A DNA stretch of 64,000 nucleotides, from positions 79,879 to 143,878 of the forward strand of contig CADCNT010000002.1 of NCBI GenBank assembly GCA_902802905.1, written 5' to 3'. Below are positions 33,793-49,315 of the stretch, piece by piece. This stretch comes from an uncultured Erysipelotrichaceae bacterium (GTDB lineage: Bacteria > Bacillota_I > Bacilli_A > RFN20 > CAG-826). A program made the translations under genes and the position numbers. The notes beneath the pieces are model-generated. The model saw only the letters and a list, made by a program, of their open reading frames with translations, had not been told where the DNA came from and did no database searches. Numbering within the stretch: position 1 is the first letter of the stretch; each line of letters starts with the position of its first letter.

Positions 33793-35298
33793 TTATATAA
33801 TAACTCTCGCTGAAATGCACCTTGAGTTCGCTTTAGACAAAAATCCATACTTCGATTTAAGTGGTTCTTCATTAGAACCTTTTATTTTATAAATAATCTC
33901 GATTTTATCTTTATAGATAATTATCTTCTCAACGAATAAATCAATCATTCGTTTTAGGACATCTCTATCCTTGGTTTTAAGTGTCTCTCGGAAATACTTG
34001 AATGCATCCTTTAGTAGTTGTTTGTCTACTGGTTTGTTATCTTGTACTTCACAAGTGGCAAGTTCCATCTCGAGTCTAGAGATATCACCACTAATGGAGA
34101 TGTTTCTTTCATAATAGACATCCTTATCCAACTTTCCATCAAGATAGATATCCAATAGTCTATCTTTTTTATTTTTCAGTTTTCGAATCTCTTTTTCAAG
34201 TGATTCTCGTTTTGTCGGTTCTCCGCCACTTTTTTGTTTGTTTAGGTGAATTATCCATTCATCGACCATTTTGTCGGAAAAAAGGTCATTTGTAATTGAA
34301 AGAAAGATAATCTCTTCTAATCGGTCACGATTGATTGTGGATGGTTTCATATCACAAATGCCATGAGTGTGACCAGTACAACGGTATGCAAGGTAAACAC
34401 TATCTTTGTATGTGACTGAATGACCAGTATAGTGAGAACCACATTCACCACACCAAAGAACTCCAGTCAGTAAGAAGTCATTTTCCTTATGTCTCCTAAA
34501 GATTCTTTTCTTGGATTCGAGTTTGGAGTTGGCACTAATCCAGACATCATAAGAAACAATTGGATCACAAACATTATCGACAATAATTGGTTCATCACTC
34601 TTGGATGCATAAGTGTATGTTCCATAGTAGATTGTGTTACGAATAATCTTTTTAAGAGAGATGATTTCTAGGTTGGCACTTCGAGTTCCTTTAACTCCAC
34701 GATTCTTCAAGTCGGTACAAATAGCAGTTAAGGTATCTCCTTGGATGACACGAGAAAAAATCTCTTGGATAATTGGTGATTCATCTTGGTTAATAATAAA
34801 CTTGCCTTCTTCGTTGATGTCATATCCTAAAGGTCGAGTAGAACAAGACAAACCTTTTCTTGCTCGTGCATGTAAACCTTTTTTAGTTTCTCTTGATAAA
34901 TTAGATGAATAATACTCCGCCATACCTTCTAGAACTGATTCAAGGATGATGGTTTCTGGAGTGTCATCAAGTTTTTCCAAGACTGATATTACCTTGACTC
35001 CATTATCTTTAAGTATCTTCTTATAAAAGGCAAAGTCATATCTATTACGAGAGAATCTATCTAACTTATGAATAATGATAAAGTCGAATTGATGTTTTTC
35101 CGAATCTTTAATCATTCGTTGAAAGTTTTTTCTTTCATCAGTGGTTGCACTCTTGGCTTCATCGATGTATTCACCGACAAGTTCAAAATTCTCTTTGTTA
35201 CAAAATTCTTTGATGGCAAAGAGTTGTGCTTCTATCGAATATCCATCTCGTTGGTTTTCGGAAGAGAATCGGCAATAGGCAACTGCTCTCTTAATCAT
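33793..35298 (-). CDS. Large serine recombinase (phage integrase)
   Basis: 501 aa. N-terminal resolvase domain AVAYCRFSSENQRDGYSIEAQ, recombinase domain, zinc ribbon CGECGSHY...RCTGHTHGIC, then a coiled coil. Confidence 0.9.
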   Translation of the reverse strand: MIKRAVAYCRFSSENQRDGYSIEAQLFAIKEFCNKENFELVGEYIDEAKSATTDERKNFQRMIKDSEKHQFDFIIIHKLDRFSRNRYDFAFYKKILKDNGVKVISVLEKLDDTPETIILESVLEGMAEYYSSNLSRETKKGLHARARKGLSCSTRPLGYDINEEGKFIINQDESPIIQEIFSRVIQGDTLTAICTDLKNRGVKGTRSANLEIISLKKIIRNTIYYGTYTYASKSDEPIIVDNVCDPIVSYDVWISANSKLESKKRIFRRHKENDFLLTGVLWCGECGSHYTGHSVTYKDSVYLAYRCTGHTHGICDMKPSTINRDRLEEIIFLSITNDLFSDKMVDEWIIHLNKQKSGGEPTKRESLEKEIRKLKNKKDRLLDIYLDGKLDKDVYYERNISISGDISRLEMELATCEVQDNKPVDKQLLKDAFKYFRETLKTKDRDVLKRMIDLFVEKIIIYKDKIEIIYKIKGSNEEPLKSKYGFLSKANSRCISARVII

Positions 35299-35689: not shown

Positions 35690-36084
35690 TGTTTCGTTTC
35701 CTTATCTAAATTATTTATTATTAGAACTACTTTCATTAGATTGTCATCATCAAGATTTAATAATCCGAGTATGGCATTATAAAGCATTTGTTCTCTCTTA
35801 TCGAAATTTCCACTTTGCAATTTTTGAATCATATCAACTGCATTAGAATCACATAATGCTCTTATCGATTCTTCAAATCCACCATGTATGGCAATTAAAT
35901 CTTCTCCAAGAATTTCGTTTGGGTAACAATGAAAAAAGTTTGCCAAGATAATTGCAACTCGATAAGTCATCTTTGCAGTGCCAAGTTCGAGTTGAGCAAT
36001 CAACGAACGAGATATTTTTGTTTTATTAGCTAGTTCTCTCTGGGATAATCCAGAACGAGTTCTAATTTCCTTCAAATTATTCAT
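35686..36084 (-). CDS. XRE-family HTH repressor, paralogue B (CI-like position)
   Basis: MNNLKEIRTRSGLSQRELANKTKISRSLIAQLE. ATG 36084 with an AAAGGAAAA RBS (track start 36156 rejected). ATGA overlap with paralogue A. Confidence 0.75.
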   Translation of the reverse strand: MNNLKEIRTRSGLSQRELANKTKISRSLIAQLELGTAKMTYRVAIILANFFHCYPNEILGEDLIAIHGGFEESIRALCDSNAVDMIQKLQSGNFDKREQMLYNAILGLLNLDDDNLMKVVLIINNLDKETKQ

Positions 36085-36110
36085 AATTTCCGATTTTCCT
36101 TTGCACAAAT

Positions 36111-36176
36111 ATAATAACAACTTGGTTAATTTTTTGCAACAAAGTGGTTGACACATTTTATTATCTTTGGTTTAAT
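36111..36176. promoter_or_regulatory. Divergent back-to-back promoters of the lysis/lysogeny switch
   Basis: Leftward: TTGCAA (36139-36134), 17 nt, TATTAT (36116-36111). Rightward: TTGACA (36148-36153), 17 nt, TTTAAT (36171-36176). Confidence 0.5.
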
Positions 36177-36219
36177 ATAATCGAGTTGTACAAAAATTCA
36201 ACCAAAAGGAGACTCTAGT

Positions 36220-36657
36220 ATGAAGAACTGGAAATGGAAAAAAGACTATGGTGATGGTCAAGAAACTGATGATTCAGTCTTATGGATCGATGGCAAACCG
36301 ACCAATAACTATGTATCTGGGTATGGATATTACACTGCCTATATTGATGGTGTAGAATTCGGATATATCTTTGATACCTTAAAAGAAGCCAAACAAGAAG
36401 TCGAAGAACAACTCGACTTACACGAGTTCGATTTCAAGGTTGGTGACAAAGTCAATGCAACATTCCATATATATGGAAGTCATAAAGTCATAGGTGTTGT
36501 AACCGAAGTTTCCAAGAACGAACATGGGTTAGATGGCACTTGGGTTTCTATCAAAGTTACTGATGGAGATAGAAAAGATAAGTCTATTGACTTAATGTTT
36601 CAATATGGAAATTTGAATATTATGTGTCCAATAAGAGATGTGAAACCTTGTATCTAA
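36220..36657 (+). CDS. Hypothetical early protein (first rightward gene)
   Basis: 145-aa ORF with an AAAGGAG RBS. No family recognised. Confidence 0.55.
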   Translation: MKNWKWKKDYGDGQETDDSVLWIDGKPTNNYVSGYGYYTAYIDGVEFGYIFDTLKEAKQEVEEQLDLHEFDFKVGDKVNATFHIYGSHKVIGVVTEVSKNEHGLDGTWVSIKVTDGDRKDKSIDLMFQYGNLNIMCPIRDVKPCI

Positions 36658-36692
36658 AGATACAAATTCATATCTTTTAGTTATATTCTAGT

Positions 36693-36711
36693 AAATAACT
36701 AGTAGTTATTT
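36693..36711. promoter_or_regulatory. Perfect 19-bp palindrome AAATAACTA-G-TAGTTATTT upstream of the cro-like gene (candidate operator)
   Basis: 9-bp arms that are exact reverse complements, 24 nt upstream of ATG 36735. Confidence 0.4.
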
Positions 36712-36734
36712 GGCAAATGAAGAAAGGAGAGTTT

Positions 36735-36953
36735 ATGGGTAAGAACGAGAAGAAATTGGCAAAGATTGACTCTAACAAAGTTCGTGCCGCCTTACTTGAA
36801 AAACACATGACAAGAGAAGATTTGGCAAAACATCTTGGAATCCACAAAGTCACTTTAGATAGAAAGTTATGTGGTGCAAGAAATTGGCAACTTGATGAAG
36901 TTTTAACAATGGTCAAATTATTCGATAAACCTCTTGAATTTTTTTTGGAGTAA
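36735..36953 (+). CDS. Small HTH DNA-binding protein (Cro/XRE-like)
   Basis: 72 aa. MTREDLAKHLGIHKVTLDRKL helix-turn-helix. GAAAGGAG RBS. Confidence 0.65.
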   Translation: MGKNEKKLAKIDSNKVRAALLEKHMTREDLAKHLGIHKVTLDRKLCGARNWQLDEVLTMVKLFDKPLEFFLE

Positions 36954-37002
36954 GTGGTTAAAATTTCAACCAAGTTATTATTAAAGAAAAGGAGACAATT
37001 CT

Positions 37003-37284
37003 ATGTCGGAAAATCAAATCTTTGAACTCACAAGCAGAGAGTTCGAAACAATGGTTCGTGAATATCAACTGAAGTTTGTTAGTCACGATAAAAAATGGGG
37101 TGGTTGTTTCATTTACTGCAATGAGTACAACACTCGTAAAGTTCTTGGTATTTCAGTCAAGGTCACTCAATGGATTGCCATCGATGACACTCAAGGAAAC
37201 TTCACTATGAGAGTTTTCAAGAAAAGAAGAGATGCAGTCAATTGGTTGATTAAGAATGCCAATGGCAAAACATGTAGGTACTAA
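37003..37284 (+). CDS. Hypothetical phage protein
   Basis: 93-aa ORF with an AAAGGAGA RBS. Confidence 0.55.
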   Translation: MSENQIFELTSREFETMVREYQLKFVSHDKKWGGCFIYCNEYNTRKVLGISVKVTQWIAIDDTQGNFTMRVFKKRRDAVNWLIKNANGKTCRY

Positions 37285-37348
37285 AAATGACTCCTACAAA
37301 CCTCCAAATTCAATTCGTTAGTCAAATACTCGATGACTATACGAAAAA

Positions 37349-37367
37349 CCTACCACGAACGAAAGGA
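37349..37367 (+). repeat. 19-nt element CCTACCACGAACGAAAGGA, copy 1 (5' UTR of the gene starting at 37378)
   Basis: Identical to 39323-39341. It ends 10 nt before the ATG and contains the likely SD. Confidence 0.8.
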
Positions 37368-37377
37368 ACAACGAAAG

Positions 37378-37917
37378 ATGGGAAAAAAGTTAGAACGAAA
37401 TGCAGTGGGTTTAACCACTCGACAAGCAAGAACTCACGATTTAATAGTCAAGAATAGTGAGTTAGGGAGAAAAACTCCAATTGATGAAATCATCGATAAT
37501 TATCCATACGATGCCGAAACTCGTAGAGATGGATATATCAAAAACACAAGTGCCAGAACACACCATCCTTGTATTCAAGTCTATGAAGATATTGATGCAT
37601 TAAATATGAATCTAGGAATCCATAAAGTGCATCTATGGGATAAAGAATACAACTTCTGGATTTCTCACGATATAGAGGAAGTTAAGGCATTTTGTAAACC
37701 ACTTTATGAGAGACAAGGCAAGAAGAAACTTTGGAAACAAGGAATCCTAATGTTAAAAGCAAGGAGACATGGACAAATGAGATTAAAGTTTGAATCCGAA
37801 TCCGAAGCTAGAGAGTATTGGGAGACATTCATTGATTCCATTAAGGGTGAATTAGTCGATGAACTTATAAAGGAAGGAGAATCGGAAGATGGCAAAGAGA
37901 AGGATGTTCTCAACTGA
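37378..37917 (+). CDS. Hypothetical phage protein
   Basis: ORF track 37333..37917. ATG 37378 is preferred because the shared 19-nt RBS-containing element precedes it. Confidence 0.5.
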   Translation: MGKKLERNAVGLTTRQARTHDLIVKNSELGRKTPIDEIIDNYPYDAETRRDGYIKNTSARTHHPCIQVYEDIDALNMNLGIHKVHLWDKEYNFWISHDIEEVKAFCKPLYERQGKKKLWKQGILMLKARRHGQMRLKFESESEAREYWETFIDSIKGELVDELIKEGESEDGKEKDVLN

Positions 37918-38782
37918 AATAGTTAGAAGTGATGCATTCTTGGACTTACCAGTTAGTAGTAGAGAATTATATTTCCAACTTGGAATGGACACTGATGATA
38001 GAGGATATATTCCAAATGCCAAATCAATCATTCGTGTCATAGGTGCAAACATAGGTGATTTAGAACCACTTATCAATAAAGGATTCTTGATGTTAAGAGG
38101 TGAAACACTGATGTTACAAAAACACTTTAGGATCAATAACACAATTAGGTCGGATAGATTCAAAGAAACTGAATACATCGATGACTTAAAGAAGTTATTT
38201 ATCAAAAGTAACGGTGTCTACACTGATGACTCAACCAAGGGAAAACCTACTCCATTGGTGCTTGGTATACCAAGTGGATACCAAATGGATACCAATGGGT
38301 TACCCCAATTAAATATAAGTAAAGATAATTTAATTAAAGATAATTCAAGTAAAGAAATAGATATAACTAGATATAACGAGATAAAAGCAAATGGATTTGC
38401 CGGAGAGTTGTTCTTGAAATTAGTCGATTCTGGTTATGTCTCGTTATATGAACTCGACACTAACGATTATATAAAGTTCCTTAAAGAACTATTAAGTCAA
38501 TATGAAGTAGTCGATATCAAGATTAAAGTCGAATACTTCTTGAGAGTAACTTGTCACTATCTACCAATCGGTAAAGACAAACAAGACAAACCTATATTCG
38601 GTTATAGGTACAAAGAAGAGAATCAAATTGGTAATAAGTTTCTTTACTTCAAAACCACTATTACTAATGCATTCAATCCTAAAGAGTATCTAACTGAACA
38701 AGAGCAGCTAGAACTCCAAAAGATAATGGATGAACTTGGTCAAGAAGATACTGACACCGATGATGACTCACTTCCATTCTAA
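37889..38782 (+). CDS. Phage replisome organizer / replication initiator
   Basis: The N-terminus MAKRRMFSTEIVRSDAFLDLPVSSRELYFQLGMDTDDRGYI is typical of the replisome-organizer N-terminal domain. Acidic C-terminus. Confidence 0.7.
   Translation: MAKRRMFSTEIVRSDAFLDLPVSSRELYFQLGMDTDDRGYIPNAKSIIRVIGANIGDLEPLINKGFLMLRGETLMLQKHFRINNTIRSDRFKETEYIDDLKKLFIKSNGVYTDDSTKGKPTPLVLGIPSGYQMDTNGLPQLNISKDNLIKDNSSKEIDITRYNEIKANGFAGELFLKLVDSGYVSLYELDTNDYIKFLKELLSQYEVVDIKIKVEYFLRVTCHYLPIGKDKQDKPIFGYRYKEENQIGNKFLYFKTTITNAFNPKEYLTEQEQLELQKIMDELGQEDTDTDDDSLPF
38320..38377. repeat. AT-rich direct-repeat cluster inside the replisome-organizer gene (candidate phage ori)
   Basis: TAAAGATAATT at 38320 and 38335. Perfect tandem TAGATATAAC x2 at 38358-38377. 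Confidence 0.4.
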
Positions 38783-38784
38783 TT

Positions 38785-39318
38785 ATGGGTAGAAGAAGGA
38801 AGAAAAGAAGAACTCTTCGGACAACTGAAGAGATACCAAAGGAAATAGCAACACCTCCACATAGACTCACATTTGAAACTGACTCAAAGCTAATTAAAGT
38901 CACTGCCAACATTAGAGATTGCTTAAGAACTAGAAGTATTAGGTCTTGTCTCAAATGTTGTAGGTGGCACGAGTGTAAGACTAGATTGGAGGGGATTAAG
39001 GTGGATGAGATTATCTTGAAAGTATCTTGGCAAGATTTTAAGAAGATTGAACGAGATGAAATTCGAGAGATTAGATCACTCACCAATCTAGCTACATTTC
39101 CACTACTGATATACCTCTATGTAGAACCTCCTTATTACGAAAGAGATAAGAAAGGTGAAATCAAAGGTGTCATCGAAGTAGTCAAAGATAAAACAACGAA
39201 TCAATGGAAGATAGACATGTTCTGGTATCCATTGATATCAGTGATTCCATACTTCATGAGATATGCCGCCAAGGATTGGACTTGGAGTTGGATATCACGA
39301 GAAAACAACAAAAAATAA
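38785..39318 (+). CDS. Hypothetical phage protein (basic N-terminus, Cys-rich segment)
   Basis: This is the only open frame here. 177 aa. CLRTRSIRSCLKCCRWHEC. Confidence 0.4.
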   Translation: MGRRRKKRRTLRTTEEIPKEIATPPHRLTFETDSKLIKVTANIRDCLRTRSIRSCLKCCRWHECKTRLEGIKVDEIILKVSWQDFKKIERDEIREIRSLTNLATFPLLIYLYVEPPYYERDKKGEIKGVIEVVKDKTTNQWKIDMFWYPLISVIPYFMRYAAKDWTWSWISRENNKK

Positions 39319-39322
39319 AGTT

Positions 39323-39341
39323 CCTACCACGAACGAAAGGA
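39323..39341 (+). repeat. 19-nt element CCTACCACGAACGAAAGGA, copy 2 (5' UTR of the C5-MTase gene)
   Basis: Identical to 37349-37367. It ends 6 nt before ATG 39348. Confidence 0.8.
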
Positions 39342-39347
39342 GAATTT

Positions 39348-40763
39348 ATGAGAGATGATGATTTTTGTCAGTTAAACCTCTTTAATTCGTTTAGAGATTA
39401 TAAGAAGTTTGATTCTAACAAGAAATTATTGGTGGTTGAATTCTTCTCCGGGATTGGTGCTACTGCACAAGGATTAAAGAATCTCGGAATCAAATTCACT
39501 CATCATCGAACATGTGAATGGTGTTCAGTAAGTATCAAAGCATACAACATGATTCACATGAAAGACACTACTGATTACTCCAAAGATTTGACCAAGGATC
39601 AACTAATTGCATACCTTGATGGGAATATCTCAACTGATTGGAACACATTATGCAATGTCAAAAAGCAAAATGAGAAATGGTTGAGAGAGACATATAACAA
39701 TTGCATTGCCACTCATAACATGATGAATATCTCGAATGTTCATGGAGAAGATTTGGGAATTCCTTATTCCGATGATTATGAAACATTTTGTTCTTACTCA
39801 TTTCCATGCCAAGACTTGTCTCTTGCTGGAAAGATGAAAGGAATGGAAGAAGGTTCTGGAACACGAAGTTCACTACTCTTTGAGTTCTTACGAATATTAA
39901 GAGAAATAGATGAACTCTATAAACAAGGTAAAAGTGGAAGAATCACTTATCTCTTGATGGAGAATGTACCAGAAGTCATTGGTTCAAAAAATGTGAAGCA
40001 ATTCGTTAAGTTTGAAGAAGAACTAACGAAACTCGGATATACAAATTTTGGTGGAATCTTGAATGGCAAGAATTACTGCATACCACAAAACCGTAGGAGA
40101 TTCTTCTTATTCTCGATTCTTGGTGATTATTCATATGACTTTCCTAAAAGAAGAGAACTGAAATATCACCTTAAGGACTTTTTAGAAGATGAAGTTGATG
40201 AAAAATACTACTTGTCACAAAGAATGATTAACTTCTTCATGTCCAACACCGAGAAACAAGCCGAGAGCGGCAATGGGATTAAAAGCAAATCCATTGCCGC
40301 TACTGATGAAGGTTCGATTGCTCGAACCATTACCACTAAAGCTGGTAGTCGAATGGATGATAACTTCATTATCTACGAAGATGAAGAAGATGACTCCGAA
40401 GAAGTGACAACTCATCAAGACTTAAAAGAAACTCTTGAGGGGGGGGTTATTGAAGAAGGAGACTTTGTCGACACATACAATCGAACGATTAAGAAAGATG
40501 GATGCAGTGGCACTATCACAACTAGGATCAGTGAATGCAATCATCAATATGTAGTTGTGAAAGGCAAAACTATCAAAATCAAGAATGCCACAAAAAAAGG
40601 GTATATCGAAGCTGAAGTCGGTGATGCAATCGATATCTCTGGAAGAATGCAATATCACCGAGGAACGGTTCAAAAAGGAATCAGCCAAACAATCACTACA
40701 ATGGGCGGAGATAATGTTGCAGTGGTTGTAGAAGATAAAGGAGACAACGATGAAGAAAAATGA
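39348..40763 (+). CDS. DNA (cytosine-5) methyltransferase, large ORF: motifs I-VIII plus three TRD-like units
   Basis: FFSGIGA (I), SFPCQDLS (IV), MENV (VI), QNRRRFF (VIII). Then ARTITTK, SGTITTR and SQTITTMGG units. The start is set at 39348, not 39204. Confidence 0.85.
   Translation: MRDDDFCQLNLFNSFRDYKKFDSNKKLLVVEFFSGIGATAQGLKNLGIKFTHHRTCEWCSVSIKAYNMIHMKDTTDYSKDLTKDQLIAYLDGNISTDWNTLCNVKKQNEKWLRETYNNCIATHNMMNISNVHGEDLGIPYSDDYETFCSYSFPCQDLSLAGKMKGMEEGSGTRSSLLFEFLRILREIDELYKQGKSGRITYLLMENVPEVIGSKNVKQFVKFEEELTKLGYTNFGGILNGKNYCIPQNRRRFFLFSILGDYSYDFPKRRELKYHLKDFLEDEVDEKYYLSQRMINFFMSNTEKQAESGNGIKSKSIAATDEGSIARTITTKAGSRMDDNFIIYEDEEDDSEEVTTHQDLKETLEGGVIEEGDFVDTYNRTIKKDGCSGTITTRISECNHQYVVVKGKTIKIKNATKKGYIEAEVGDAIDISGRMQYHRGTVQKGISQTITTMGGDNVAVVVEDKGDNDEEK
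40439..40446 (+). repeat. G8 homopolymer inside the C5-MTase large ORF (in frame, encodes part of EGGV)
   Basis: gaGGGGGGGGtt, read directly. This is the longest G run seen in the window. Confidence 0.95.
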
Positions 40764-41151
40764 GTATGTTGGAGTGTTCGACATTAAAGAATCCGATACA
40801 TTTCGACCAACACTTGAATCAAGAATCCATTTAGACTCACCAGTCTCCAAGACATTAACTTGTCGAGAGGATAGCTGCGGTGTCATCGAGAGAGAGAGAG
40901 AGAGTAGACTCCGAATCCGAAAACTCACTCCGAGAGAATGTTTCCGCCTTATGGGTTTCGATGATGACTCATTTAATTCTCTTGAAGGTCAATTCTCAAA
41001 CAACAATCTCTATCATCTTGCCGGAGACTCAATCATCAGTGTTGTTATCTCATACATATGTCTAGGTCTTATGGAAGATGAAAAAGAAGCTGAAAGCAAA
41101 ATTCAAAAATATGTCGATACATTAAAGGAGGACAAAGATGGAAACAAATAA
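40750..41151 (+). CDS. DNA (cytosine-5) methyltransferase, small ORF: fourth TRD-like unit plus motifs IX-X
   Basis: SKTLTCRED, RKLTPRECFRLMGFDD (IX), AGDSI (X). It has its own AAAGGAG RBS 7 nt upstream and overlaps the large ORF by 14 nt. Confidence 0.8.
   Translation: MKKNEYVGVFDIKESDTFRPTLESRIHLDSPVSKTLTCREDSCGVIERERESRLRIRKLTPRECFRLMGFDDDSFNSLEGQFSNNNLYHLAGDSIISVVISYICLGLMEDEKEAESKIQKYVDTLKEDKDGNK
40888..40904 (+). repeat. (GA)8 tract inside the C5-MTase small ORF (in frame, encodes ERERE)
   Basis: GAGAGAGAGAGAGAGAG, read directly. It lies about 15 nt upstream of motif IX. Confidence 0.95.
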
Positions 41152-41876
41152 GATTTACTTCGGTGATGCATATGAACTCATTAAGGAAATCCCGGATAAA
41201 TCAATCGACTTAATTTATACTGATCCACCTTATGACTTCCATAGTGGAACTGCAGTATCTGGTGGAATCTTCAAAGATAGAGAATGCAAACCATATCAAG
41301 ATGTGGTTGATGCCAAATTAAATGCTGGAATAGACAACTCAATCTTGGATGAATTTGTAAGAATACTAAAGCATATATATATATATATGGTGCAACAAGT
41401 CTCAAATTCCGTTCTATCTAAATTACTTCTTGTCTTATCCAAATATAAGTTTCGAGATTCTAACATGGCACAAGAAAAATCCATCACCAATTACAAAAAA
41501 CACATTCTTACCAGATACCGAATACTGCCTTATGTTTCGAGAAAAGGGTGTGTGCCTATTAAATGATGGATATGAATTAAAACATAAGTATTACATCTCA
41601 AGTACCAACAAAGATGACAAAGATGATTACTTGCATCCGACAATCAAACCAATTGAATTTGTCGAAAAGCACATTGCTCATTCTACTCAAGTCGGTGATA
41701 TCGTATTTGATCCATTCTTGGGTAGTGGCACTACTGCACTTGCAGCTAAACATCTTGGAAGAAAATATATCGGATTTGAAATCAATGAGACTTATTACAA
41801 AATCGCGGTTGACCGTTTACAAGGAATCAATCAAAAAGGAGAGATGAATCTCTTCGACATAATGGGAGATGAATGA
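41138..41876 (+). pseudogene. Beta-class DPPY (N6-adenine-type) DNA methyltransferase, frame-shifted at an (AT)8 tract (phase-OFF allele)
   Basis: Frame 1 carries IYTDPPYDF up to the tract. From the tract on, the +1 frame reads IYIWCNKSQ...ILTWHKKNP...HPTIKP...FDPFLGSGTTALAA. (AT)9 would give one 246-aa ORF. Confidence 0.85.
41373..41388 (+). repeat. (AT)8 tract at the frameshift point of the DPPY methyltransferase
   Basis: gcATATATATATATATATgg, read directly. Confidence 0.95.
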
Positions 41877-42040
41877 TGGCAAAGAAATATCTAGAGTTCA
41901 CTGATATAGAACTCATCCAAGAAATTCATAGAATTGAACATTTACTTACAACTAATAAGAAACCACTAACACATAGGCAAAATAAAATCTACTTACAAAA
42001 GCTGCATAACGAATGGGGAAGGAGAAAAAATGGCAAATAG
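41876..42040 (+). CDS. Small hypothetical ORF (54 aa), below the ORF-track cutoff
   Basis: My translation: MAKKYLEFTDIELIQEIHRIEHLL...WGRRKNGK. ATGA-type overlap with the MTase stop. Confidence 0.3.
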   Translation: MAKKYLEFTDIELIQEIHRIEHLLTTNKKPLTHRQNKIYLQKLHNEWGRRKNGK

Positions 42041-42260
42041 ACAACAATTACTCGGAAGAGTCATCGATGGATATTGGGAAATCGTTAAAGCAATTAAGAC
42101 TGGAAATTCCCGAAACTACAATTACATTCTCCGAAACCAATATAACGGAACTGAAGTTCAAGTTGGTGGTACAACGGTTAGATCAATCATTAAAGGAGAA
42201 ACTAGTGTCTCCAAAATCGTATCAAGAAGAATCAAAAAAGGAGAAAGAAGAAATGGATAA
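42030..42260 (+). CDS. Hypothetical small phage protein
   Basis: 76 aa with a GGAGAAAAAA RBS before the ATG. Confidence 0.45.
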   Translation: MANRQQLLGRVIDGYWEIVKAIKTGNSRNYNYILRNQYNGTEVQVGGTTVRSIIKGETSVSKIVSRRIKKGERRNG

Positions 42261-43156
42261 TGAATTACTACTCTTCGATAGATTAGAAATCATTAAAACC
42301 ACTATCAATAAATATGGAATAGATAATTTCTACTTATCGTTCTCTGGTGGTAAAGATTCCACTATTCTCCATCACTTGATAGATATGGCACTTCCGGGAA
42401 ATAGAATTCCAAGAGTGTTTGTAAACACTGGAATCGAATACAACATGATTGTTCAGTTTGTTAAGGATATGGCAGCTAAAGATGACCGATTCGTAATCAT
42501 TGCACCAAGTAAACCAATTAAAAAGGTGTTAGAAGAATTCGGTTATCCGTTCAAATCCAAAGAACACTCACTACGAGTTTACCAATTCAACAAAGGTCAA
42601 AACTCGAATTACATCAAGAAATACATATCTGGTTATGACCATAATGGCAAAGAATCGACATTTGTATGTCCAAAGATTCTCAAGTATCAGTTTGAGGAAA
42701 GAGGTAAATACAACTACTCAAATCTATGTTGCCAAAAACTGAAGAAAGAACCAGTTCATAAATGGGAGAAGGAAAACCATAAGTCCATTGCGATGACTGG
42801 TATGAGAGCGGAGGAAGGTGGCAATCGAGCAAGACTCGGATGCATCATCACCGACTCTAAAGGAAGATTGAAGAGATTCCATCCACTCATCAAAGTCGAT
42901 GAACAATGGGAAGATTGGTTATTAGAGAGAGAGAGAGAGAATAGCACTCGCACCACTCTATTGCCAACCATTCAACTTCAAAAGGACCGGATGTAAAGGA
43001 TGCCCGTTCAGTCTTGAACTCCAAGAACAACTTGACATCATGCAAATCTATCTCCCGGCTGAACGAAAACAATGTGAATTCATTTGGGAGTATGTCTACA
43101 AGGAATATCGAAGAATCGGATATCGATTGAAAGACAAAATCACTATTTGGGATTAA
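42253..43156 (+). pseudogene. PAPS/APS-reductase-like PP-loop protein (DndC-like fold), frame-shifted at a (GA)8 tract (phase-OFF allele)
   Basis: SFSGGKDS PP-loop and LCCQKLKKEPV in frame 0. After the tract the +1 frame reads IALAPLYCQPFNFKRTGCKGCPF... through to a stop at 43154-43156. The start is set at ATG 42253 (AAAGGAGAAAG RBS). Confidence 0.8.
42924..42940 (+). repeat. (AG)8A / (GA)8 tract at the frameshift point of the PAPS-reductase-like gene
   Basis: ttAGAGAGAGAGAGAGAGAat, read directly. Confidence 0.95.
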
Positions 43157-43170
43157 GGAGACTCAAAAAA

Positions 43171-43578
43171 ATGAAATATCTAAAGGTTCTCACACCGTTA
43201 GAATCAGTCAAAATCTTAAATCATAAAATGGATCAAATCGATTTCTTCTATGAATTGACTGATAAAGATGAAATCTATTTGTTGGTCAGTAACGATGAAA
43301 GATTCGTTCTAGACTATGACTACGATGGAAGTTGGTTTGTCTGGGATAAAAAGGCACACCACTATCCATTCAAAGATATTGAAATGAACAATGGCAAAAT
43401 CGTTGCACACTGCAAAGCTGCCAAAGTTGAAAAGAAAATAATCGGTTCAATCAATTATTACCGAACAAAAATAAAAGACTTAATTGTCTATGACTCTCCA
43501 AAAGATGATGTTGGAGAAATCTTCAAGAAAGATGTTGCACCACAATTCGTGGAAGAAGGAGAAAACGATGGAAGATAG
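43171..43578 (+). CDS. Hypothetical phage protein
   Basis: ATG 43171 preceded by AAGGAG. 135 aa. Confidence 0.5.
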   Translation: MKYLKVLTPLESVKILNHKMDQIDFFYELTDKDEIYLLVSNDERFVLDYDYDGSWFVWDKKAHHYPFKDIEMNNGKIVAHCKAAKVEKKIIGSINYYRTKIKDLIVYDSPKDDVGEIFKKDVAPQFVEEGENDGR

Positions 43579-43891
43579 AATCGAATCAGTTATCAAGAAA
43601 GTCTTATCAATCGAAGATAAGGTTTCCATCAGTGAAGTTGCCACTATGATTCTAGGATCAATTGAGTTATTAAACGATAATTCAGTTTCATTCAAAGAAG
43701 TTAAAGCGGCAATGCCAAGTCAATATAACGGTATTATCAACTCTCTATGTAATACATTCATAGTCAACTGCTTATCACTAGCTGGTGCAAGTAAGGAAGA
43801 GTTGATTCAAGCTGCAAAAGACTTGAAATCAGTAAGAATCGGTATTTCCGAACTCCATATCCGAAAGAAAACCGATAAATATGATGCATAG
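43568..43891 (+). CDS. Hypothetical phage protein
   Basis: ATG 43568 preceded by GAAGGAG. 107 aa. Confidence 0.5.
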   Translation: MEDRIESVIKKVLSIEDKVSISEVATMILGSIELLNDNSVSFKEVKAAMPSQYNGIINSLCNTFIVNCLSLAGASKEELIQAAKDLKSVRIGISELHIRKKTDKYDA

Positions 43892-43908
43892 GAAAGGAGG
43901 AATTGCCG

Positions 43909-44172
43909 ATGAGAATAAAACTGCATCCAGAGATTGTTCTATCAATCGATGATATTCCAATCATCACCAAGTCTATTAGAGATAGGAAAATCCTCTTAAA
44001 GACTTTAGCTGAAGAACTCGGATGGTCAAAGTCAAAACTCTATTATGTGATTCGTGGCAAAGGAAATGCCAAAAAACTCTTGGATCACTTAAAAGAGAAA
44101 TATCAAATCATAGTGCCACTTACATATGAAGGTGACATATCAGTGGTCGATTCAAACATTCTCACCTATTAA
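43909..44172 (+). CDS. Hypothetical small protein, possible HTH
   Basis: AGGAGG sits 8 nt before ATG 43909. LKTLAEELGWSKSKLYYVIRGKG looks like a helix-turn-helix. Confidence 0.45.
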   Translation: MRIKLHPEIVLSIDDIPIITKSIRDRKILLKTLAEELGWSKSKLYYVIRGKGNAKKLLDHLKEKYQIIVPLTYEGDISVVDSNILTY

Positions 44173-44183
44173 GGAGACAAAAA

Positions 44184-44930
44184 ATGGAAAACGAAGAAAG
44201 AGCATTATCAATATTGAACCTTTGTGGGAACATCAAAGCTGATATGCACGAATCAACTAATAAATATGAAATATTACAACTTAATGTTAACAACGAATAT
44301 TTCTATTACTGCACTTTATTCAAATTAAGTGACAAGCAATCATTACTTACAATTTTTGGGGAAGAAAAAGCACATGGACTATTTTGCAAAGGTGAAAGAG
44401 TCTTTGGAGGAGAGATGTTCCAGTCAATTAAAGATTGTTTGGATCAGTCTTATCACTTCTTAACCAAAATGCATTTCGAACAAGAAGTCGATGCCGAACA
44501 AACTCGACTCAAAATCGCACAAGAGAGTGATGTCTATTATGAAGATGCACTATATCCGACATCTAAAACTAGAGAAGCATTCTTACTTGAAATATCTGAA
44601 TGGGATAGTGATTTAGAAAATTTAGAACCAATTATGGATTTTAGTGTTCAAGCATACATTTGTTATCATGCATTAGCTAGATTGTTTGGAAAAGAAAAGA
44701 CACCAAAACTAATCAATCGAAAAGGGATGGAAGTTGAGTATGTCGAATGGGTATGTTTACCAAAAGAAAAATATTTCGATGGTATTCATGCAGTGGTATA
44801 CGATGAATCCGAAATATACCATCTTCAAGATTGCTATGGTGAAGTCTTATATGTCTTTAGATGTGATTCCGGTGCAAAGGCACTTGAAATTGCCAAAGGA
44901 TGGTTAGAAGAACATGGAAAGACTAATTAA
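44184..44930 (+). CDS. Hypothetical phage protein
   Basis: 248-aa ORF with an AAGGAGA RBS. Confidence 0.5.
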   Translation: MENEERALSILNLCGNIKADMHESTNKYEILQLNVNNEYFYYCTLFKLSDKQSLLTIFGEEKAHGLFCKGERVFGGEMFQSIKDCLDQSYHFLTKMHFEQEVDAEQTRLKIAQESDVYYEDALYPTSKTREAFLLEISEWDSDLENLEPIMDFSVQAYICYHALARLFGKEKTPKLINRKGMEVEYVEWVCLPKEKYFDGIHAVVYDESEIYHLQDCYGEVLYVFRCDSGAKALEIAKGWLEEHGKTN

Positions 44931-45267
44931 AGATGGAGATATCATTCTCGATGGTACACTACCACGATATCAAAAAGAGAAAAATGCATTTCTTAAATTA
45001 TCATCATTTGAAGATTTCGAACAAGAATTCGGAATCAGTCTAGTAAAACTTCTTGCAGCCAAAAAAGTCTACTACATGGATTGGAATCATGATTGTTCTG
45101 GATTCGTTATAAAAGAGACTCACGAATTATTTATAAATCTTACTAATAGAACCATTGAATATTATGAGAACGAATATAGTGAATTCACATTTGATTTAGA
45201 AATCCAAAACTATGGTAAGAAAGATATATTTGGTGGATGGGCATTTACAAAGGAGGAATTAGAATGA
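44914..45267 (+). CDS. Hypothetical phage protein
   Basis: 117-aa ORF overlapping its neighbours. Confidence 0.45.
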   Translation: MERLIKDGDIILDGTLPRYQKEKNAFLKLSSFEDFEQEFGISLVKLLAAKKVYYMDWNHDCSGFVIKETHELFINLTNRTIEYYENEYSEFTFDLEIQNYGKKDIFGGWAFTKEELE

Positions 45268-45797
45268 CACAAAAAGAAAAAGAATTCCTTGAAGGATATC
45301 AAGACGCAATGATTCAGTTCGGACAAAGAATCGCACATTGTGATAGAAAAGGCATTGGACCAAATTGGTATTACGAAGTAGCTCAAGACATGGTATATGA
45401 TGATGAACCATCAAAACAATTCTTTTGCCACGATAAACATGGGAATACTGCTTATCGAGTGATTGTGACTGAACGAGATAAAGGTTGGCACAAAGCAGTT
45501 GATGAATTATATGACCGATTCGTTCTTCGTATAGGTCGCAAGACACATTATAGAGACAAAAACAATAAAACAATTTGTGTTGGTGATGTTGTACTTGTTG
45601 AAAATGAAAAATTCTCATTTCTAGGATGCATTGTAATGAATGAAAAGGATAAAATCGAAATTCATTATGATGAAACATTTGATCCATCGAAACACGAAGA
45701 ATTTGAATTATCGGTTTTTAGAAGAAGTGAAAGAGAAATTGTTTCTCCTTGGAACGATTCGAAAGAGCATAGAAAGAAGGTGTATGAAACATTATGA
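45264..45797 (+). CDS. Hypothetical phage protein
   Basis: AGGAGG sits 7 nt before ATG 45264. 177 aa. Confidence 0.5.
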   Translation: MTQKEKEFLEGYQDAMIQFGQRIAHCDRKGIGPNWYYEVAQDMVYDDEPSKQFFCHDKHGNTAYRVIVTERDKGWHKAVDELYDRFVLRIGRKTHYRDKNNKTICVGDVVLVENEKFSFLGCIVMNEKDKIEIHYDETFDPSKHEEFELSVFRRSEREIVSPWNDSKEHRKKVYETL

Positions 45798-45955
45798 AAG
45801 TTAGAAAAGCATATAAAATCACTGGTGTTAGTCAAGGTAATGTCTACACCACTGAATGTATTTATGCAACTAGTCAAAAGGAAGCTATTGAAGAATTTCA
45901 AATTAGATTCCCGGAACTAGCAGTTTGCCGAATCAAACATGTTAGGAAGGTGTAA
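45794..45955 (+). CDS. Small hypothetical ORF (53 aa), below the ORF-track cutoff
   Basis: My translation: MKVRKAYKITGVSQGNVYTTECIYATSQKEAIEEFQIRFPELAVCRIKHVRKV. ATGA overlap with the upstream stop. Confidence 0.3.
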   Translation: MKVRKAYKITGVSQGNVYTTECIYATSQKEAIEEFQIRFPELAVCRIKHVRKV

Positions 45956-45957
45956 TT

Positions 45958-46689
45958 ATGTCTAGTCTTACAAAGAAAGTAAAAACTGAAAGATACACCA
46001 CTAAAGTCAATGGAAGAGTCATGAAGAATGACCGACCAAAGAACACTCACATTCCTACTTATCCAATCAAGGATGAAAAGGATATCAAAAAAATCTATCG
46101 ATACCTTGAACTCCAAATTGCCTATTCCAAATCGACATTTGAAGAATTCATTGCTTATCGAAACTACATGCTCTTTATGTTAGGGATCAACACTGCGTTA
46201 AGAGCGGAAGATTTACTCCAACTCAAAGTTAAAGGTGTTATCAAAGGTCGAATTGATACAACTGAAAACAAAACCAAGAAAGACCAACACTTTATGCTTA
46301 ATAAGAAGTTGTTCGAGGAAATCAAAAAATACATCGATAAATTTGACTTGAGATTAGATGATTATCTATTTGCAAGTCGAAAGTCTGGTGATGATGGATT
46401 CACAAAACCAATTACTAGACAAGCATCTCACAAGATAATGAAAACCATTGCCGAAGTTGTTGGGATCAACTACTCATTCGGTCTCCACTCCTTGAGAAAG
46501 ACATTTGGTTACCATTACATAAAAAGGAATCTCAATTCAGCGGATGCTTGGTTGACTTTATCAAAGATGTATAACCACTCATCTCCGGCAACTACAATGA
46601 TGTACATTTGTTGGGATGATAAAGATTACAAGGCAAGAGAAGAATTCTTCCTTGATAATGAATCCGCTATTAAAAGGAGAAAAAAATGA
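45958..46689 (+). CDS. Tyrosine recombinase (phage-integrase/Xer family), internal to the prophage
   Basis: 243 aa. ALRAEDLLQLK (box I Arg), HSLRKTFGYHY (HxxR), NHSSPATTMMYI (His...catalytic Tyr). Confidence 0.8.
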   Translation: MSSLTKKVKTERYTTKVNGRVMKNDRPKNTHIPTYPIKDEKDIKKIYRYLELQIAYSKSTFEEFIAYRNYMLFMLGINTALRAEDLLQLKVKGVIKGRIDTTENKTKKDQHFMLNKKLFEEIKKYIDKFDLRLDDYLFASRKSGDDGFTKPITRQASHKIMKTIAEVVGINYSFGLHSLRKTFGYHYIKRNLNSADAWLTLSKMYNHSSPATTMMYICWDDKDYKAREEFFLDNESAIKRRKK

Positions 46690-47192
46690 AGAACAATGAC
46701 AACTTAAAAGGTTTTATTAAAATCTCTCAAGAACAACTCAAAATCGTTATTAAATATTATGGTGATAATTTGAAACACACTCAATTCCAAGATTGTCATC
46801 TCTTATATATCGGAAATATGAACAATGTGGTCATTAAGAAATTTGTTCAAGACAAATATGCATATCTCAATACCAAATATAACGATTGGTTAATTGAACC
46901 AGCCGAAATCATTGAAGAGAAGAGATTCATTCCAGTCAAAACCAAAATGGTTGAGATGAAAGCACATCCACCATATATCGATAAGGATGGAACATATCCA
47001 ATGCCACTTGAAGATGAGAACATTGCCGAGAAGATAAAAGCTGCAATGGATGAAGTTCTCAAACCTTATGAAGAAGATGAAGAGAATCTAAAGGTCGATG
47101 TTGGCGAAGTGAATCAAGAACCGATGACTGAACAAGGATTCAACATCACATTCCAGATTCTTGTTTGGAAGAAGGAGACTGCCAAAGCATGA
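46686..47192 (+). CDS. Hypothetical phage protein
   Basis: 168-aa ORF, ATGA overlap with the recombinase gene. Confidence 0.5.
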   Translation: MKNNDNLKGFIKISQEQLKIVIKYYGDNLKHTQFQDCHLLYIGNMNNVVIKKFVQDKYAYLNTKYNDWLIEPAEIIEEKRFIPVKTKMVEMKAHPPYIDKDGTYPMPLEDENIAEKIKAAMDEVLKPYEEDEENLKVDVGEVNQEPMTEQGFNITFQILVWKKETAKA

Positions 47193-47416
47193 GTGCCAAA
47201 AGAAGATTACTAACCAACCTTCTCTTACCAACTATGATGTTAGGAATGATGGGTGCAAATACCTATAATGACATTCCTAAAGAACCAAAGAGTCCACCAA
47301 GACCAAAAGGTTACACTCCTAAAGGTAAGACTGATGAAGAACGAATCCAACATAAACTTCATCAAAAGAAAATCAAGGCAAGAAGAAATGCCAGAAGGAG
47401 AAAACCTAGAAGATGA
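47189..47416 (+). CDS. Hypothetical small basic protein
   Basis: ATG 47189 in an ATGA overlap. The C-terminus is very basic (KKIKARRNARRRKPRR). Confidence 0.4.
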   Translation: MSAKRRLLTNLLLPTMMLGMMGANTYNDIPKEPKSPPRPKGYTPKGKTDEERIQHKLHQKKIKARRNARRRKPRR

Positions 47417-47676
47417 AAGACAAAGAAGATGAAGATTACTTGACCATAGTTATTGGTCGAGAAGAAGATGACTACATTCCACCGAAAGCAACGGTTGGTG
47501 AAATAATCAGTGACATAATCTCAATCGTTCTTCACATTCTAGTTCTTCTCTCAATTATCTCCATATGGGTTATATTCTTCATCAATAGAAAATTCATATG
47601 GATTCCAGTCGGAACATTCATTCTTCTACTTCTTATATCCTTAATTAAAAAGGGTATAGATGGACCAAGTGGATAG
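47413..47676 (+). CDS. Hypothetical small membrane protein
   Basis: 87 aa with two hydrophobic helices. Confidence 0.45.
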   Translation: MKDKEDEDYLTIVIGREEDDYIPPKATVGEIISDIISIVLHILVLLSIISIWVIFFINRKFIWIPVGTFILLLLISLIKKGIDGPSG

Positions 47677-47699
47677 AATATTTAGACAAAACATTTCAG

Positions 47700-47801
47700 T
47701 TGACATGGGCTTATAAACTGTCAAATTCATATAAGTATCATATATACATAGTATATAAAGTCATAGTGTCAACATAACTCTAACAACACCGAATTTGACA
47801 T
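47700..47801. promoter_or_regulatory. Intergenic array of four TTGACA(T)/TGTCAA hexamers upstream of the late-regulator operon
   Basis: TTGACAT at 47700, TGTCAA at 47719, TGTCAA at 47767, TTGACAT at 47795. The layout is mirror-like. Confidence 0.35.
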
Positions 47802-47830
47802 AATTCATAAAAAAGAAAGGAAAAAATGAT

Positions 47831-48298
47831 ATGAAAAACATTACATTAAATAGACTCATAGAACATATCAAGTCTACTAATGAAGATGGCAAGTACGATG
47901 AATTGATTAACGATATCGATTCGTGGATCACTGCCACAAAAGAAAACAAAGCTGCCAACACTAAACCACGAAAGATTAAAGAGAACAATCCTACCACGAA
48001 TGAAATCTCTAATGATGATAAAGAACCTAAAGACAAACTAACGATTGTCGATAAGAACAACATTCCTCAAGGTGAGTTCATCAACATTGATATGGTCAAA
48101 GCACTTGCCGAATCATTTGCCGAAGAAACTAGACAAGAGATTGATGGCATCGATAAAGAACTGAAAGAGTTGGTGTCTCCAACATCCAAGTTTATGTTCG
48201 TGACCGAGAAGATGAACAAGAGTCATTATCTCCAAGGTCAACTCTCTGGAATCTATGGGTTGTTAAAAAGAGTCGATGACAAATTCAACAACGATTAA
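47831..48298 (+). CDS. Hypothetical phage protein
   Basis: 155-aa ORF with an AAAGGAAAAAA RBS. Confidence 0.5.
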   Translation: MKNITLNRLIEHIKSTNEDGKYDELINDIDSWITATKENKAANTKPRKIKENNPTTNEISNDDKEPKDKLTIVDKNNIPQGEFINIDMVKALAESFAEETRQEIDGIDKELKELVSPTSKFMFVTEKMNKSHYLQGQLSGIYGLLKRVDDKFNND

Positions 48299-48626
48299 GG
48301 TAGAGTTCTATCGAAACTACATCTTCCTTCAAGCACTCATCAATGATTGTTATCTTCAGTTAAAACACTCGACCAATGATACCGAGAAAGTTGGTGTCGA
48401 AAAGAAACTGAATAACTACCTTGAGAGAAAAGAAAAATACGATAAAACTCTTATCCAAATTAAGAAGGTTTGTAGTGATTCCGAGTTCAAAGTTTTCTAT
48501 TATCATTATTTCCAAGGTTTTTCACTCTCCGAGACTGCAAGAAAAATGCACTACTCCAAAGGAGGAATAACCAAAATACTAAACAAAATCAATCGTAAAG
48601 TGGGGACAATTTGTATACCGGGTTAA
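48276..48626 (+). CDS. Putative late-gene transcriptional activator (sigma-70 region-4 / ArpU/RinA-like HTH)
   Basis: 116 aa. The C-terminus FYYHYFQGFSLSETARKMHYSKGGITKILNKINRKV resembles sigma region 4. Position immediately upstream of the packaging genes. Confidence 0.5.
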   Translation: MTNSTTIKVEFYRNYIFLQALINDCYLQLKHSTNDTEKVGVEKKLNNYLERKEKYDKTLIQIKKVCSDSEFKVFYYHYFQGFSLSETARKMHYSKGGITKILNKINRKVGTICIPG

Positions 48627-48646
48627 CATTGACTCGGTTTTTCTTT
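48617..48646 (+). terminator. Intrinsic terminator after the late-regulator gene
   Basis: ACCGGGT-taacattg-ACTCGGT (7 bp, one G-U pair) followed by TTTTCTTT. The stop codon sits in the loop. Confidence 0.5.
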
Positions 48647-48751
48647 ATATGGTATCTATCTTAATGTCGAAGTTGAGTCCATGTGGAGGTGTTGCTACGA
48701 ATTATTCACGATGGTTCTTCTTTGACGCCAATTCTTTTATCGGAGGAACAA

Positions 48752-49063
48752 ATGCCCGGAAGTCCAAAGAGAGATAAGTTCTATCATTCAACTGCATGGA
48801 AGAAATGCCGAGAACAAATCATTATCTCTCGTTACCAACTTTGTGAGAAGTGTGGGAAGAAAGGAACTGAAGTGCATCACATCATTCCACTAACTGATGA
48901 GAATGTAGATGATCCAATGATTAGTCTTAATCCAGAGAATCTTATGTTGCTTTGTAAAGAGTGCCACGATTCGATAAGACTTGAGGAATCAATGGTCAAT
49001 TATGTTGGAGTTCGTGGTGATGTTTCGTTCGATGCTCAAGGGAATATTATATTTAAGAAATAA
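48752..49063 (+). CDS. HNH endonuclease (terminase-associated)
   Basis: CEKCGKKGTEVHHIIPL...NLMLLCKECHD. GGAGGA RBS before ATG 48752. Confidence 0.85.
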   Translation: MPGSPKRDKFYHSTAWKKCREQIIISRYQLCEKCGKKGTEVHHIIPLTDENVDDPMISLNPENLMLLCKECHDSIRLEESMVNYVGVRGDVSFDAQGNIIFKK

Positions 49064-49315
49064 TGTTCCACACGAAATGGCATAGGGGGGGTTGAAAATT
49101 CGAAAAAAGGTCGATTTTTGACACCGGGTGTGGACCACAAAAATATATATTCCAAAAATGGATAAAAAAGGACAAATGAGAGGAAATTTGAACAAATTTC
49201 AGCAACTAACTCCATCTTCATTAGAATCTCCTTATTTATAACTAAATACTAGCTGAAGTTGGTTGCTTAAAATTGTTGGAAAATCGTAGATCAAAAATTT
49301 ATAAAGGAGGAGTCT
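49064..49315. other. Non-coding gap between HNH and terS: candidate cos region
   Basis: 252 nt without a credible ORF. Locally GC-rich elements: a G7 run at 49085-49091 and the palindrome ACACC-G-GGTGT at about 49121-49131. Confidence 0.35.

Follow-up and report, generated by a model that had tools for sequence, protein, structure and literature searches.

A polymorphic dinucleotide tract as a very probable ON/OFF switch of a PAPS-reductase-like gene in the DNA modification cluster of a rumen prophage

Is a gene whose two halves are read in different frames a relic, an error of assembly, or one position of a switch? The question is raised by a PAPS-reductase-like gene with a PP-loop in a 64,000-nucleotide (nt) stretch of DNA from an uncultured Erysipelotrichaceae bacterium (assembly GCA_902802905.1, contig CADCNT010000002.1, positions 79,879 to 143,878; the whole of this stretch is hereafter called the window, with position 1 its first nucleotide), in which a run of eight AG units, (AG)8, separates the two halves. 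We conclude that this (AG)n tract is very probably a contingency locus, i.e., a hypermutable switch carried by a temperate phage, and that the window happens to hold an OFF allele. A first-pass annotation, made from the letters alone, had already described the PP-loop, the CC motif, the tract, the stops and both frames, and we confirmed all of its coordinates; it missed that three more simple-repeat switches lie in this gene cluster, making four with that of the PAPS-reductase-like gene.

The gene begins at ATG 42253, with AGGAG just upstream, and encodes the PP-loop SFSGGKDS (residues 29–36, nt 42337–42360) and the sequence LCCQKLKKEP (residues 158–167; CC motif at nt 42727–42732) ahead of the tract. 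The frame entered from upstream reads ...WLLERERENSTRTT... (...ERERENSTRTT... after the tract) and ends at TAA 42994–42996; the +1 frame is open from TAG 42923–42925 to TAA 43154–43156, with the translation RERERIALAPLYCQPFNFKRTGCKGCPF... / IALAPLYCQPFNFKRTGCKGCPF..., and contains C248 (nt 42992–42994) and C251 (nt 43001–43003). That nine units would join the halves into about 301 amino acids (aa), as the first-pass annotation proposed, is borne out by conceptual translation, in which the addition of one GA unit to (AG)8 gives 301 aa and the removal of two units gives 299 aa. Unit counts divisible by three are therefore ON (lengths of 6, 9 or 12 units bring the frame back), those with a remainder of two give the 247-aa truncation, and those with a remainder of one (7 or 10 units) meet an immediate stop (GAA TAG). 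Public data hold identical 247-aa and 327-aa proteins (P0121, P0123, P0131, P0133 and P0134; loci and proteins are cited here by our own L and P labels). Gene callers often add 64–80 codons upstream of the gene (42013–42252), giving products of 327, 365, 379 and 381 aa; this extension is probably untranslated, because the homologues begin MDNELL or MDYELT and AGGAG precedes ATG 42253. A 76-aa open reading frame (ORF) in a different frame (42030–42260) overlaps the extension. Separate production of the C-terminal fragment from ATG 42905, as in P0124 (the 7/10-unit state), was considered and found unlikely, there being no Shine-Dalgarno sequence upstream of it.

The first-pass annotation had presumed that the length of the tract is not fixed, and among relatives it is not. 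In 17 genomes, including that of the window, the counts are 6 units (one genome, ON), 8 (five, OFF), 9 (eight, ON), 10 (two, OFF) and 12 (one, ON), all with conserved flanks. An alignment of locus L008 with window positions 36015–49156 spans 13,148 columns with no mismatches and three gaps, and these gaps are three dinucleotide tracts, (GA)7 in L008 versus 8 units in the window, (AT)10 versus 8 and (AG)9 versus 8. Further near-clonal pairs (1–2 mismatches in 5–13 kb) differ at the tract of the neighbouring C5 cytosine methyltransferase. The same variation is visible at the protein level: the 90%-identity cluster of P0001 has 82 members, and the 15 that are listed have lengths of 84, 221, 247, 254, 301, 311, 327, 334, 365, 379 and 381 aa, with the junctions ERER-IALAP, ERERER-IALAP, ERERERER-IALAP, ERERE-NSTRTT and ERERERE-stop. 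Pattern scans with anchors through metagenome and viral collections identified a single new locus, L099, besides a duplicate (L100), a near-identity search of GenBank phages with positions 39000–43600 gave no match, and a scan of the species representatives of a genome collection with the repaired (301-aa) protein found no relative. Two unusual proteins are also of note: P0128 joins the PAPS-reductase-like N-terminus to a target-recognition segment of the C5 methyltransferase and could have arisen by recombination or as an artefact of assembly. In the mosaic P0060 the C-terminal third derives from a repeat-free lineage (FIKEHNVKL), so that P0060 is a natural locked-ON allele.

Is the part of the gene beyond the tract maintained when it is out of frame? 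Compared with the window, six distinct lineages have accumulated 55 synonymous and no non-synonymous substitutions in the downstream frame, both at ON loci (L004 13:0, L009 10:0, L012 6:0 and L013 11:0) and at OFF loci (L010 7:0 and L099 8:0). The same substitutions would be nearly all non-synonymous in the other two frames, and the downstream frame has no internal stops. Because the 55:0 counts include OFF lineages, they indicate that purifying selection on the C-terminal segment continues while the gene stands OFF. In addition, more diverged relatives carry the repeat at an unchanged codon position, as (AG)9 in L101 (66% identical) and (AG)12 in L102 (64%); there is no tract at the site in P0002 (87% identical), L016 and L017 (70%) or L018 (55%). 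In a further sub-lineage the alleles ERESIA / ERERESIA / ERERERESIA form an in-frame series, and in the 50%-level representatives P0139, P0227, P0176 and P0216 the frame shifts exactly after IERERE. This distribution points to a switch that is old and recurrent.

As to what the switch controls, a hidden Markov model (HMM) search of the kind suggested in the first-pass annotation showed the repaired protein to align with its family from end to end: Pfam PAPS_reduct (PF01507) scored 62.9 bits against a cut-off of 22.5, with a match that crosses the junction, and phrog_424 matched residues 20–290. More than 100 full-length homologues are 63–99% identical to the repaired protein; a set of this size with lengths of 293–312 aa spans 63–87% identity. 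Sequence searches of the PDB, whether with the single sequence or with a profile, were weak (best E-value 2.7e-4), and a fold search was used instead. An AlphaFold2 model of the repaired protein (pLDDT 90.9, pTM 0.86) found PAPS and APS reductases as its top matches, with template modelling (TM) scores of 0.41–0.49 when normalised to the query and 0.54–0.68 when normalised to the target and 13–16% identity, followed in a second tier by the [4Fe-4S] tRNA thiolases TtuA and NcsA and by LarE; on this model the protein has the PAPS-reductase fold.

In 31 sequences that are 27–51% identical to the query, C159, C160, C248 and C251 are invariant, as are the PP-loop, K164, R192, Y237, R245 and G247. 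The tract falls between the CC and the CxxC, and the OFF allele is without the invariant RTGCxGCP; the first-pass claim that the OFF product loses the CxxC pair thus stands, the cysteines concerned (C248 and C251) being invariant down to 27% identity. From this conservation and the likeness to APS reductase, we predict that the CC...CxxC cysteines bind a 4Fe-4S cluster. The repeat itself codes for residues 225–230, which in the model lie at the end of a helix (217–226), and relatives without the repeat have a gap of two residues at this position.

The tract is not a solitary one. Dinucleotide runs of more than 5 units occur three times in the 64-kb window, each of exactly 8 units, and every long simple repeat of the window lies within 40439–42939, inside modification genes (Table 1). 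In 100 second-order Markov simulations of the window there was no run of at least 8 units, and runs of at least 6 units averaged 0.04 per simulation. There are four simple-repeat switches in the cluster, where chance is expected to give none. The (GA)n tract of the C5 methyltransferase has alleles of 7, 8, 9, 10 and 12 units in 15 genomes. The N6/N4 methyltransferase, which is split in the window, is intact with (AT)9 (246 aa) or (AT)6 (244 aa) and then contains DPPY...FxGSG, its ON lengths being 6, 9 and 12 units. Downstream of its (AT)n the ratios of synonymous to non-synonymous substitutions are 12:3 and 6:0, and this frame also is still under purifying selection. The same test was discarded for the C-terminal ORF of the C5 methyltransferase, where it is confounded by 3'-end replacement in some lineages. 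All four of the possible ON/OFF combinations of this C-terminal ORF and the PAPS-reductase-like gene occur, which indicates independent switching of the two.

Table 1. Positions in the window of the PAPS-reductase-like gene, the companion repeat-bearing genes and the start of the prophage.
Feature	Position	Strand	Remarks
PAPS-reductase-like PP-loop gene, OFF allele	42253..43156	+	301 aa with (AG)9
(AG)8 hypermutable tract (putative switch)	42924..42939	+	reads as (GA)8 at 42925-42940
247-aa product of the OFF allele	42253..42996	+	PP-loop and CC kept, then 17 out-of-frame residues and TAA
C-terminal 71 codons, +1 frame	42941..43156	+	carries RTGCKGCP and C275
C5 cytosine DNA methyltransferase, N-terminal ORF	39204..40763	+	motifs I-VIII, repeats like target-recognition domains; Pfam DNA_methylase E = 1.1e-35
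G8 tract in C5 N-terminal ORF	40439-40446	+	in frame in the window; G9 in L012 gives a truncation
C5 methyltransferase, C-terminal ORF	40750..41151	+	motifs IX-X, own Shine-Dalgarno sequence
(GA)8 in C5 C-terminal ORF	40888-40903	+	ON in the window; ON at 5, 8 or 11 units
N6/N4 DNA methyltransferase, split, OFF	41138..41876	+	(AT)8 at 41373-41388
Large serine recombinase/integrase, prophage start	33793-35295		CI-like repressor also at the start

Several further observations concern these methyltransferases. In every relative the C5 methyltransferase is divided between two ORFs that overlap by 14 nt (40750–40763), the second with AAGGAG as its Shine-Dalgarno sequence, and the enzyme has four T[IL]T repeats resembling target-recognition elements; by analogy with the enzymes of Bacillus phages SPR and phi3T, this suggests an enzyme that is both split and multispecific. 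The slot between the C5 and PAPS-reductase-like genes is swapped by lineage: some lineages have the N6/N4 methyltransferase with its (AT)n there, others an unrelated, repeat-free methyltransferase of 176 aa (phrog_799, L001:5082-5612). L101, where the PAPS-reductase-like protein shows 66% identity, also has a (GA)8 in the N6/N4 methyltransferase upstream, directly after a GSGTT motif (L101:427-442), which argues that repeat switching of methyltransferases beside the PAPS-reductase-like gene arose more than once.

How might such a locus work? We propose that the chromosome of a rumen Erysipelotrichaceae-like bacterium harbours a temperate phage with a contingency locus, at which slipped-strand mispairing during DNA replication would add or remove whole units of (AG)n. 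With 6, 9 or 12 units a complete enzyme of about 300 aa would be made, the repeat forming a (Glu-Arg)n stretch where a helix ends and where changes in length are tolerated; with 8 units the product would be the 247-aa protein, and with 7 or 10 units translation would stop at once. Both OFF products would keep the PP-loop and the CC, and because the invariant RTGCxGCP is lost they have probably lost the predicted Fe-S site and all activity. The three further repeat switches, in the split C5 methyltransferase and the upstream N6/N4 methyltransferase, would act independently, so that one phage lineage could yield progeny with differing sets of modification genes ON. The most likely benefit would be bet-hedging, as a modification that shields phage DNA from classical restriction may expose it to modification-dependent defences.

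A number of points weigh against this proposal. Tract lengths were read from consensus assemblies, from which switching within a single clonal population is inferred. The sampled genomes are partly dependent (L013–L015 are probably one population and L004–L007 come from one study), and the ON fraction of 10/17 is not significantly above one third after lineages are collapsed. The (AT)n alleles have 7, 8 or 10 units and the N6/N4 methyltransferase is ON in none of seven genomes; OFF in all seven could reflect selection for OFF in the sampled habitat or a small-sample effect. Linkage to methyltransferases is not universal, as the L017 gene (70% identical) adjoins recombination genes instead, and the PAPS-reductase-like family has no known biochemical function.

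Other explanations of the interrupted gene have to be set beside the contingency locus. The least probable, in our estimation, is that the prophage is decaying and the gene in it has become a pseudogene, inactivated once by a frameshift that happened to fall in a repeat. The window allele is indeed out of frame, as is the neighbouring N6/N4 methyltransferase, and the element is an integrated prophage; however, the allele is intact in L008, where the flanks are identical, the downstream frame has neither internal stops nor, OFF lineages included, any departure from the 55:0 pattern, the OFF length recurs in independent studies alongside other lengths, and the terminase, portal and capsid genes of the prophage are intact. 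Only a little more credible is that OFF alleles are rescued by ribosomal frameshifting or transcriptional slippage, such that the gene is constitutive and the tract tunes its level. Repeats can promote slippage by RNA polymerase or the ribosome, and the downstream frame is conserved; however, length variation in the DNA suffices to conserve both frames, a single recoding signal could not serve the three frame states found in nature, and neither a stimulatory structure nor a slippery heptamer was identified. Known transcriptional slippage, moreover, occurs mainly at long runs of A or T. It is likewise improbable, if less so than recoding, that errors of sequencing or assembly at a low-complexity site account for the length differences, the real gene being intact throughout. 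Dinucleotide repeats stutter readily in PCR (polymerase chain reaction) and all of the data are short-read metagenome assemblies, but tracts of 16–24 bp lie well inside a read, (AG)8 is found in five assemblies that differ in project and assembler (the window, ERZ920190, ERZ28614488, ERZ27280675 and Ga0310690), and the differences reach 6 units (6 versus 12). In addition, a nearby T8 run is constant in all genomes and the G8 tract differs in one only, which argues against general assembly noise, and an assembler's choice among coexisting lengths would itself mean heterogeneity in the population.

The remaining alternative, to which we give the most room of the four and still very little, concerns the function of the gene: it could be a true metabolic CysH, an assimilatory PAPS/APS reductase that boosts sulfur assimilation of the host and has no connection with DNA. 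Database names read PAPS reductase, the best fold matches are CysH-type PAPS/APS reductases, and the CC...CxxC arrangement fits APS reductases. The likeness to the APS reductases with a 4Fe-4S cluster (CysH; PDB 2goy and 7lhr) extends to the same fold (TM-score 0.49 by query, 0.65–0.68 by target) and to CC followed by CxxC in equal order, the alignment to TIGR02055 covering both motifs; however, the window protein is about 80 residues longer, has only 13–16% identity to solved CysH structures, and stands in a DNA-modification context. Its scores against the NCBIfam CysH-type models, about 1/10 to 1/6 of the cut-offs, were all below threshold (cysH TIGR00434 28.5/165, APS_reductase TIGR02055 25.7/235, PAPS_reductase TIGR02057 24.3/254). 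The C-terminal catalytic motif of CysH is ECGLH, and ECG[LI]H occurs nowhere in the 301 aa, the C-terminal region ...ERKQCEFIWEYVY... having RKQCEFIW in its place. Also counting against a metabolic CysH are the location of the gene in an early DNA replication and modification operon, the repeated fusion of its homologues to C5 DNA methylases, and the unusual logic of repeat switching that it has in common with two methyltransferases.

The first-pass annotation had likened the protein to APS reductases and to DndC-type enzymes; the fold and the CC/CxxC pattern agree with this, and family membership does not, as by HMM score and neighbouring genes the protein belongs to none of CysH, DndC or SspD. 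DndC, SspD and BrxP are PAPS-reductase-domain proteins of DNA phosphorothioation systems (PMC12914056; PMC12707154), in which phosphorothioate synthesis needs a partner ATPase, DndD, SspC or BrxC (PMC12914056). They share with the window protein a PP-loop ATP pyrophosphatase domain of the PAPS_reduct superfamily, act in DNA modification and are linked to mobile elements and defence, whereas the matches of the window protein to them are weak or partial and there are no partner genes nearby. Searches with the PADLOC models gave no significant full-length match to DndC, SspD or BrxP (DndC, E-value 0.0069; SspD, 4e-5 over residues 28–96), the BrxP match (1.5e-15) having its best stretch only at residues 7–101. 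No ATPase of the DndD, SspC or BrxC type, no desulfurase and no DndE/SspB was identified among the 16 neighbouring ORFs scanned (36220–49060), none of which matched an ATPase of any type. A lead to a DndD-like partner, a 676-aa AAA_23 ATPase beside the L017 homologue, was rejected on finding it SbcC-like (phrog_77), adjoining RecT and without a match to DndD or SspC. With no partner ATPase or desulfurase nearby, and the ATPase by the L017 homologue being SbcC-like, canonical phosphorothioation is not supported. TtuA, NcsA and LarE likewise combine a PP-loop with a cysteine-ligated Fe-S cluster (predicted in our case) and adenylate and thiolate nucleic-acid or cofactor substrates, but they match with a TM-score of about 0.4, their cysteines are arranged differently, and no gene for a sulfur-carrier partner was seen here.

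A more informative lead to function came from fusions. P0135 (644 aa) combines a homologue 58% identical to the window protein with a complete C5 DNA methylase (Pfam positions 1–323 of 324, E-value 2e-69), and this methylase half is 40–47% identical to the C5 methyltransferase ORFs of the window. Both domains occur together in about 58 of the 120 clusters listed at 90% identity, and these are 71–100% identical to P0135; the fusion polypeptides are of ~600–880 aa and come from contigs of up to 600 kb. We found no description of a fusion between a PAPS-reductase-like protein and a C5 methylase in the literature searched, coverage of which was incomplete. The recurrent fusions, together with the switching logic shared with the adjacent methyltransferases, favour a role of the PAPS-reductase-like enzyme in DNA modification alongside cytosine methylation, which we rate at about an even chance. 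More tentatively, and with the odds on the whole against it, we speculate that this enzyme and the C5 methyltransferase install an undescribed DNA modification, possibly containing sulfur or dependent on adenylation, with three to four switches giving up to 16 progeny states; if so, the module would be a viral counterpart of the phasevarion, directed against mixed restriction and modification-dependent defences. Genes named "PAPS reductase" or cysH are among the auxiliary metabolic genes most often reported from viromes, and the function of such genes in phages is still regarded as open (PMC11437467). For the family studied here, the shared switching, the conserved switch site and the recurrent C5 fusions argue for DNA modification or anti-restriction and not for sulfur metabolism. 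The locus supplies natural, otherwise identical ON/OFF pairs, which is the comparison needed for finding the product of the enzyme, and the function of phage "cysH-like" genes thereby becomes directly testable.

Phase variation through simple repeats is well established for bacterial DNA methyltransferases, and experimentally demonstrated contingency loci have recently been reported from phages too. The A-runs of T2 agt and T4 rIIA are such loci, and toggling of T2 agt lowers sensitivity to one kind of restriction at the cost of raising it to another (Gomez, Barrick & Waters, bioRxiv 10.1101/2025.10.21.683753). These resemble the present case in that a simple repeat in a phage ORF causes a reversible frameshift, and T2 agt is also a DNA-modification gene; they differ in being mononucleotide runs of 6–9 bases in lytic coliphages, whereas here the phage is temperate, its host an uncultured rumen Firmicute, and the tracts are long dinucleotide repeats of 6–12 units, with three to four switches in one module and known from natural populations only. 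In Metamycoplasma hominis, the dcm8/dam3 Type II C5/N6 methyltransferase gene carries (TA)6–12 (PMC10305163). There, as in our cluster, a repeat in a methyltransferase ORF sets the frame, and M. hominis is a Mollicute, a relative of the Erysipelotrichaceae; the phasevarion genes, however, are chromosomal and thought to regulate host expression, whereas those described here are phage-borne, belong to an operon of the early lytic phase and do not all encode methyltransferases. With the same incomplete coverage of the literature, we found no report of a PAPS-reductase-like gene with a repeat switch, nor of a phage modification module in which dinucleotide switches are clustered. All contingency loci demonstrated in phages to date are short homopolymer runs of lytic coliphages; to these the locus would add long dinucleotide tracts that act in combination and belong to a temperate phage of gut and rumen microbiomes.

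The surroundings of the cluster are those of a prophage. From position 1 to about 33 kb the window is host chromosome, encoding PriA (best match 70%, to a rumen Erysipelotrichaceae metagenome-assembled genome), F1 ATPase subunits and glycerol kinase; the prophage then begins with the integrase and repressor genes, followed by replication genes, the modification cluster, HNH, TerS, TerL, portal and capsid. Between the early and packaging genes lies a gene for a 243-aa tyrosine-recombinase-domain protein (45958–46689), which is conserved in all relatives and comes on top of the large serine integrase. There is also a G7 run (49085–49091) in the gap between the HNH endonuclease and small terminase genes, and it has the same length in L008.

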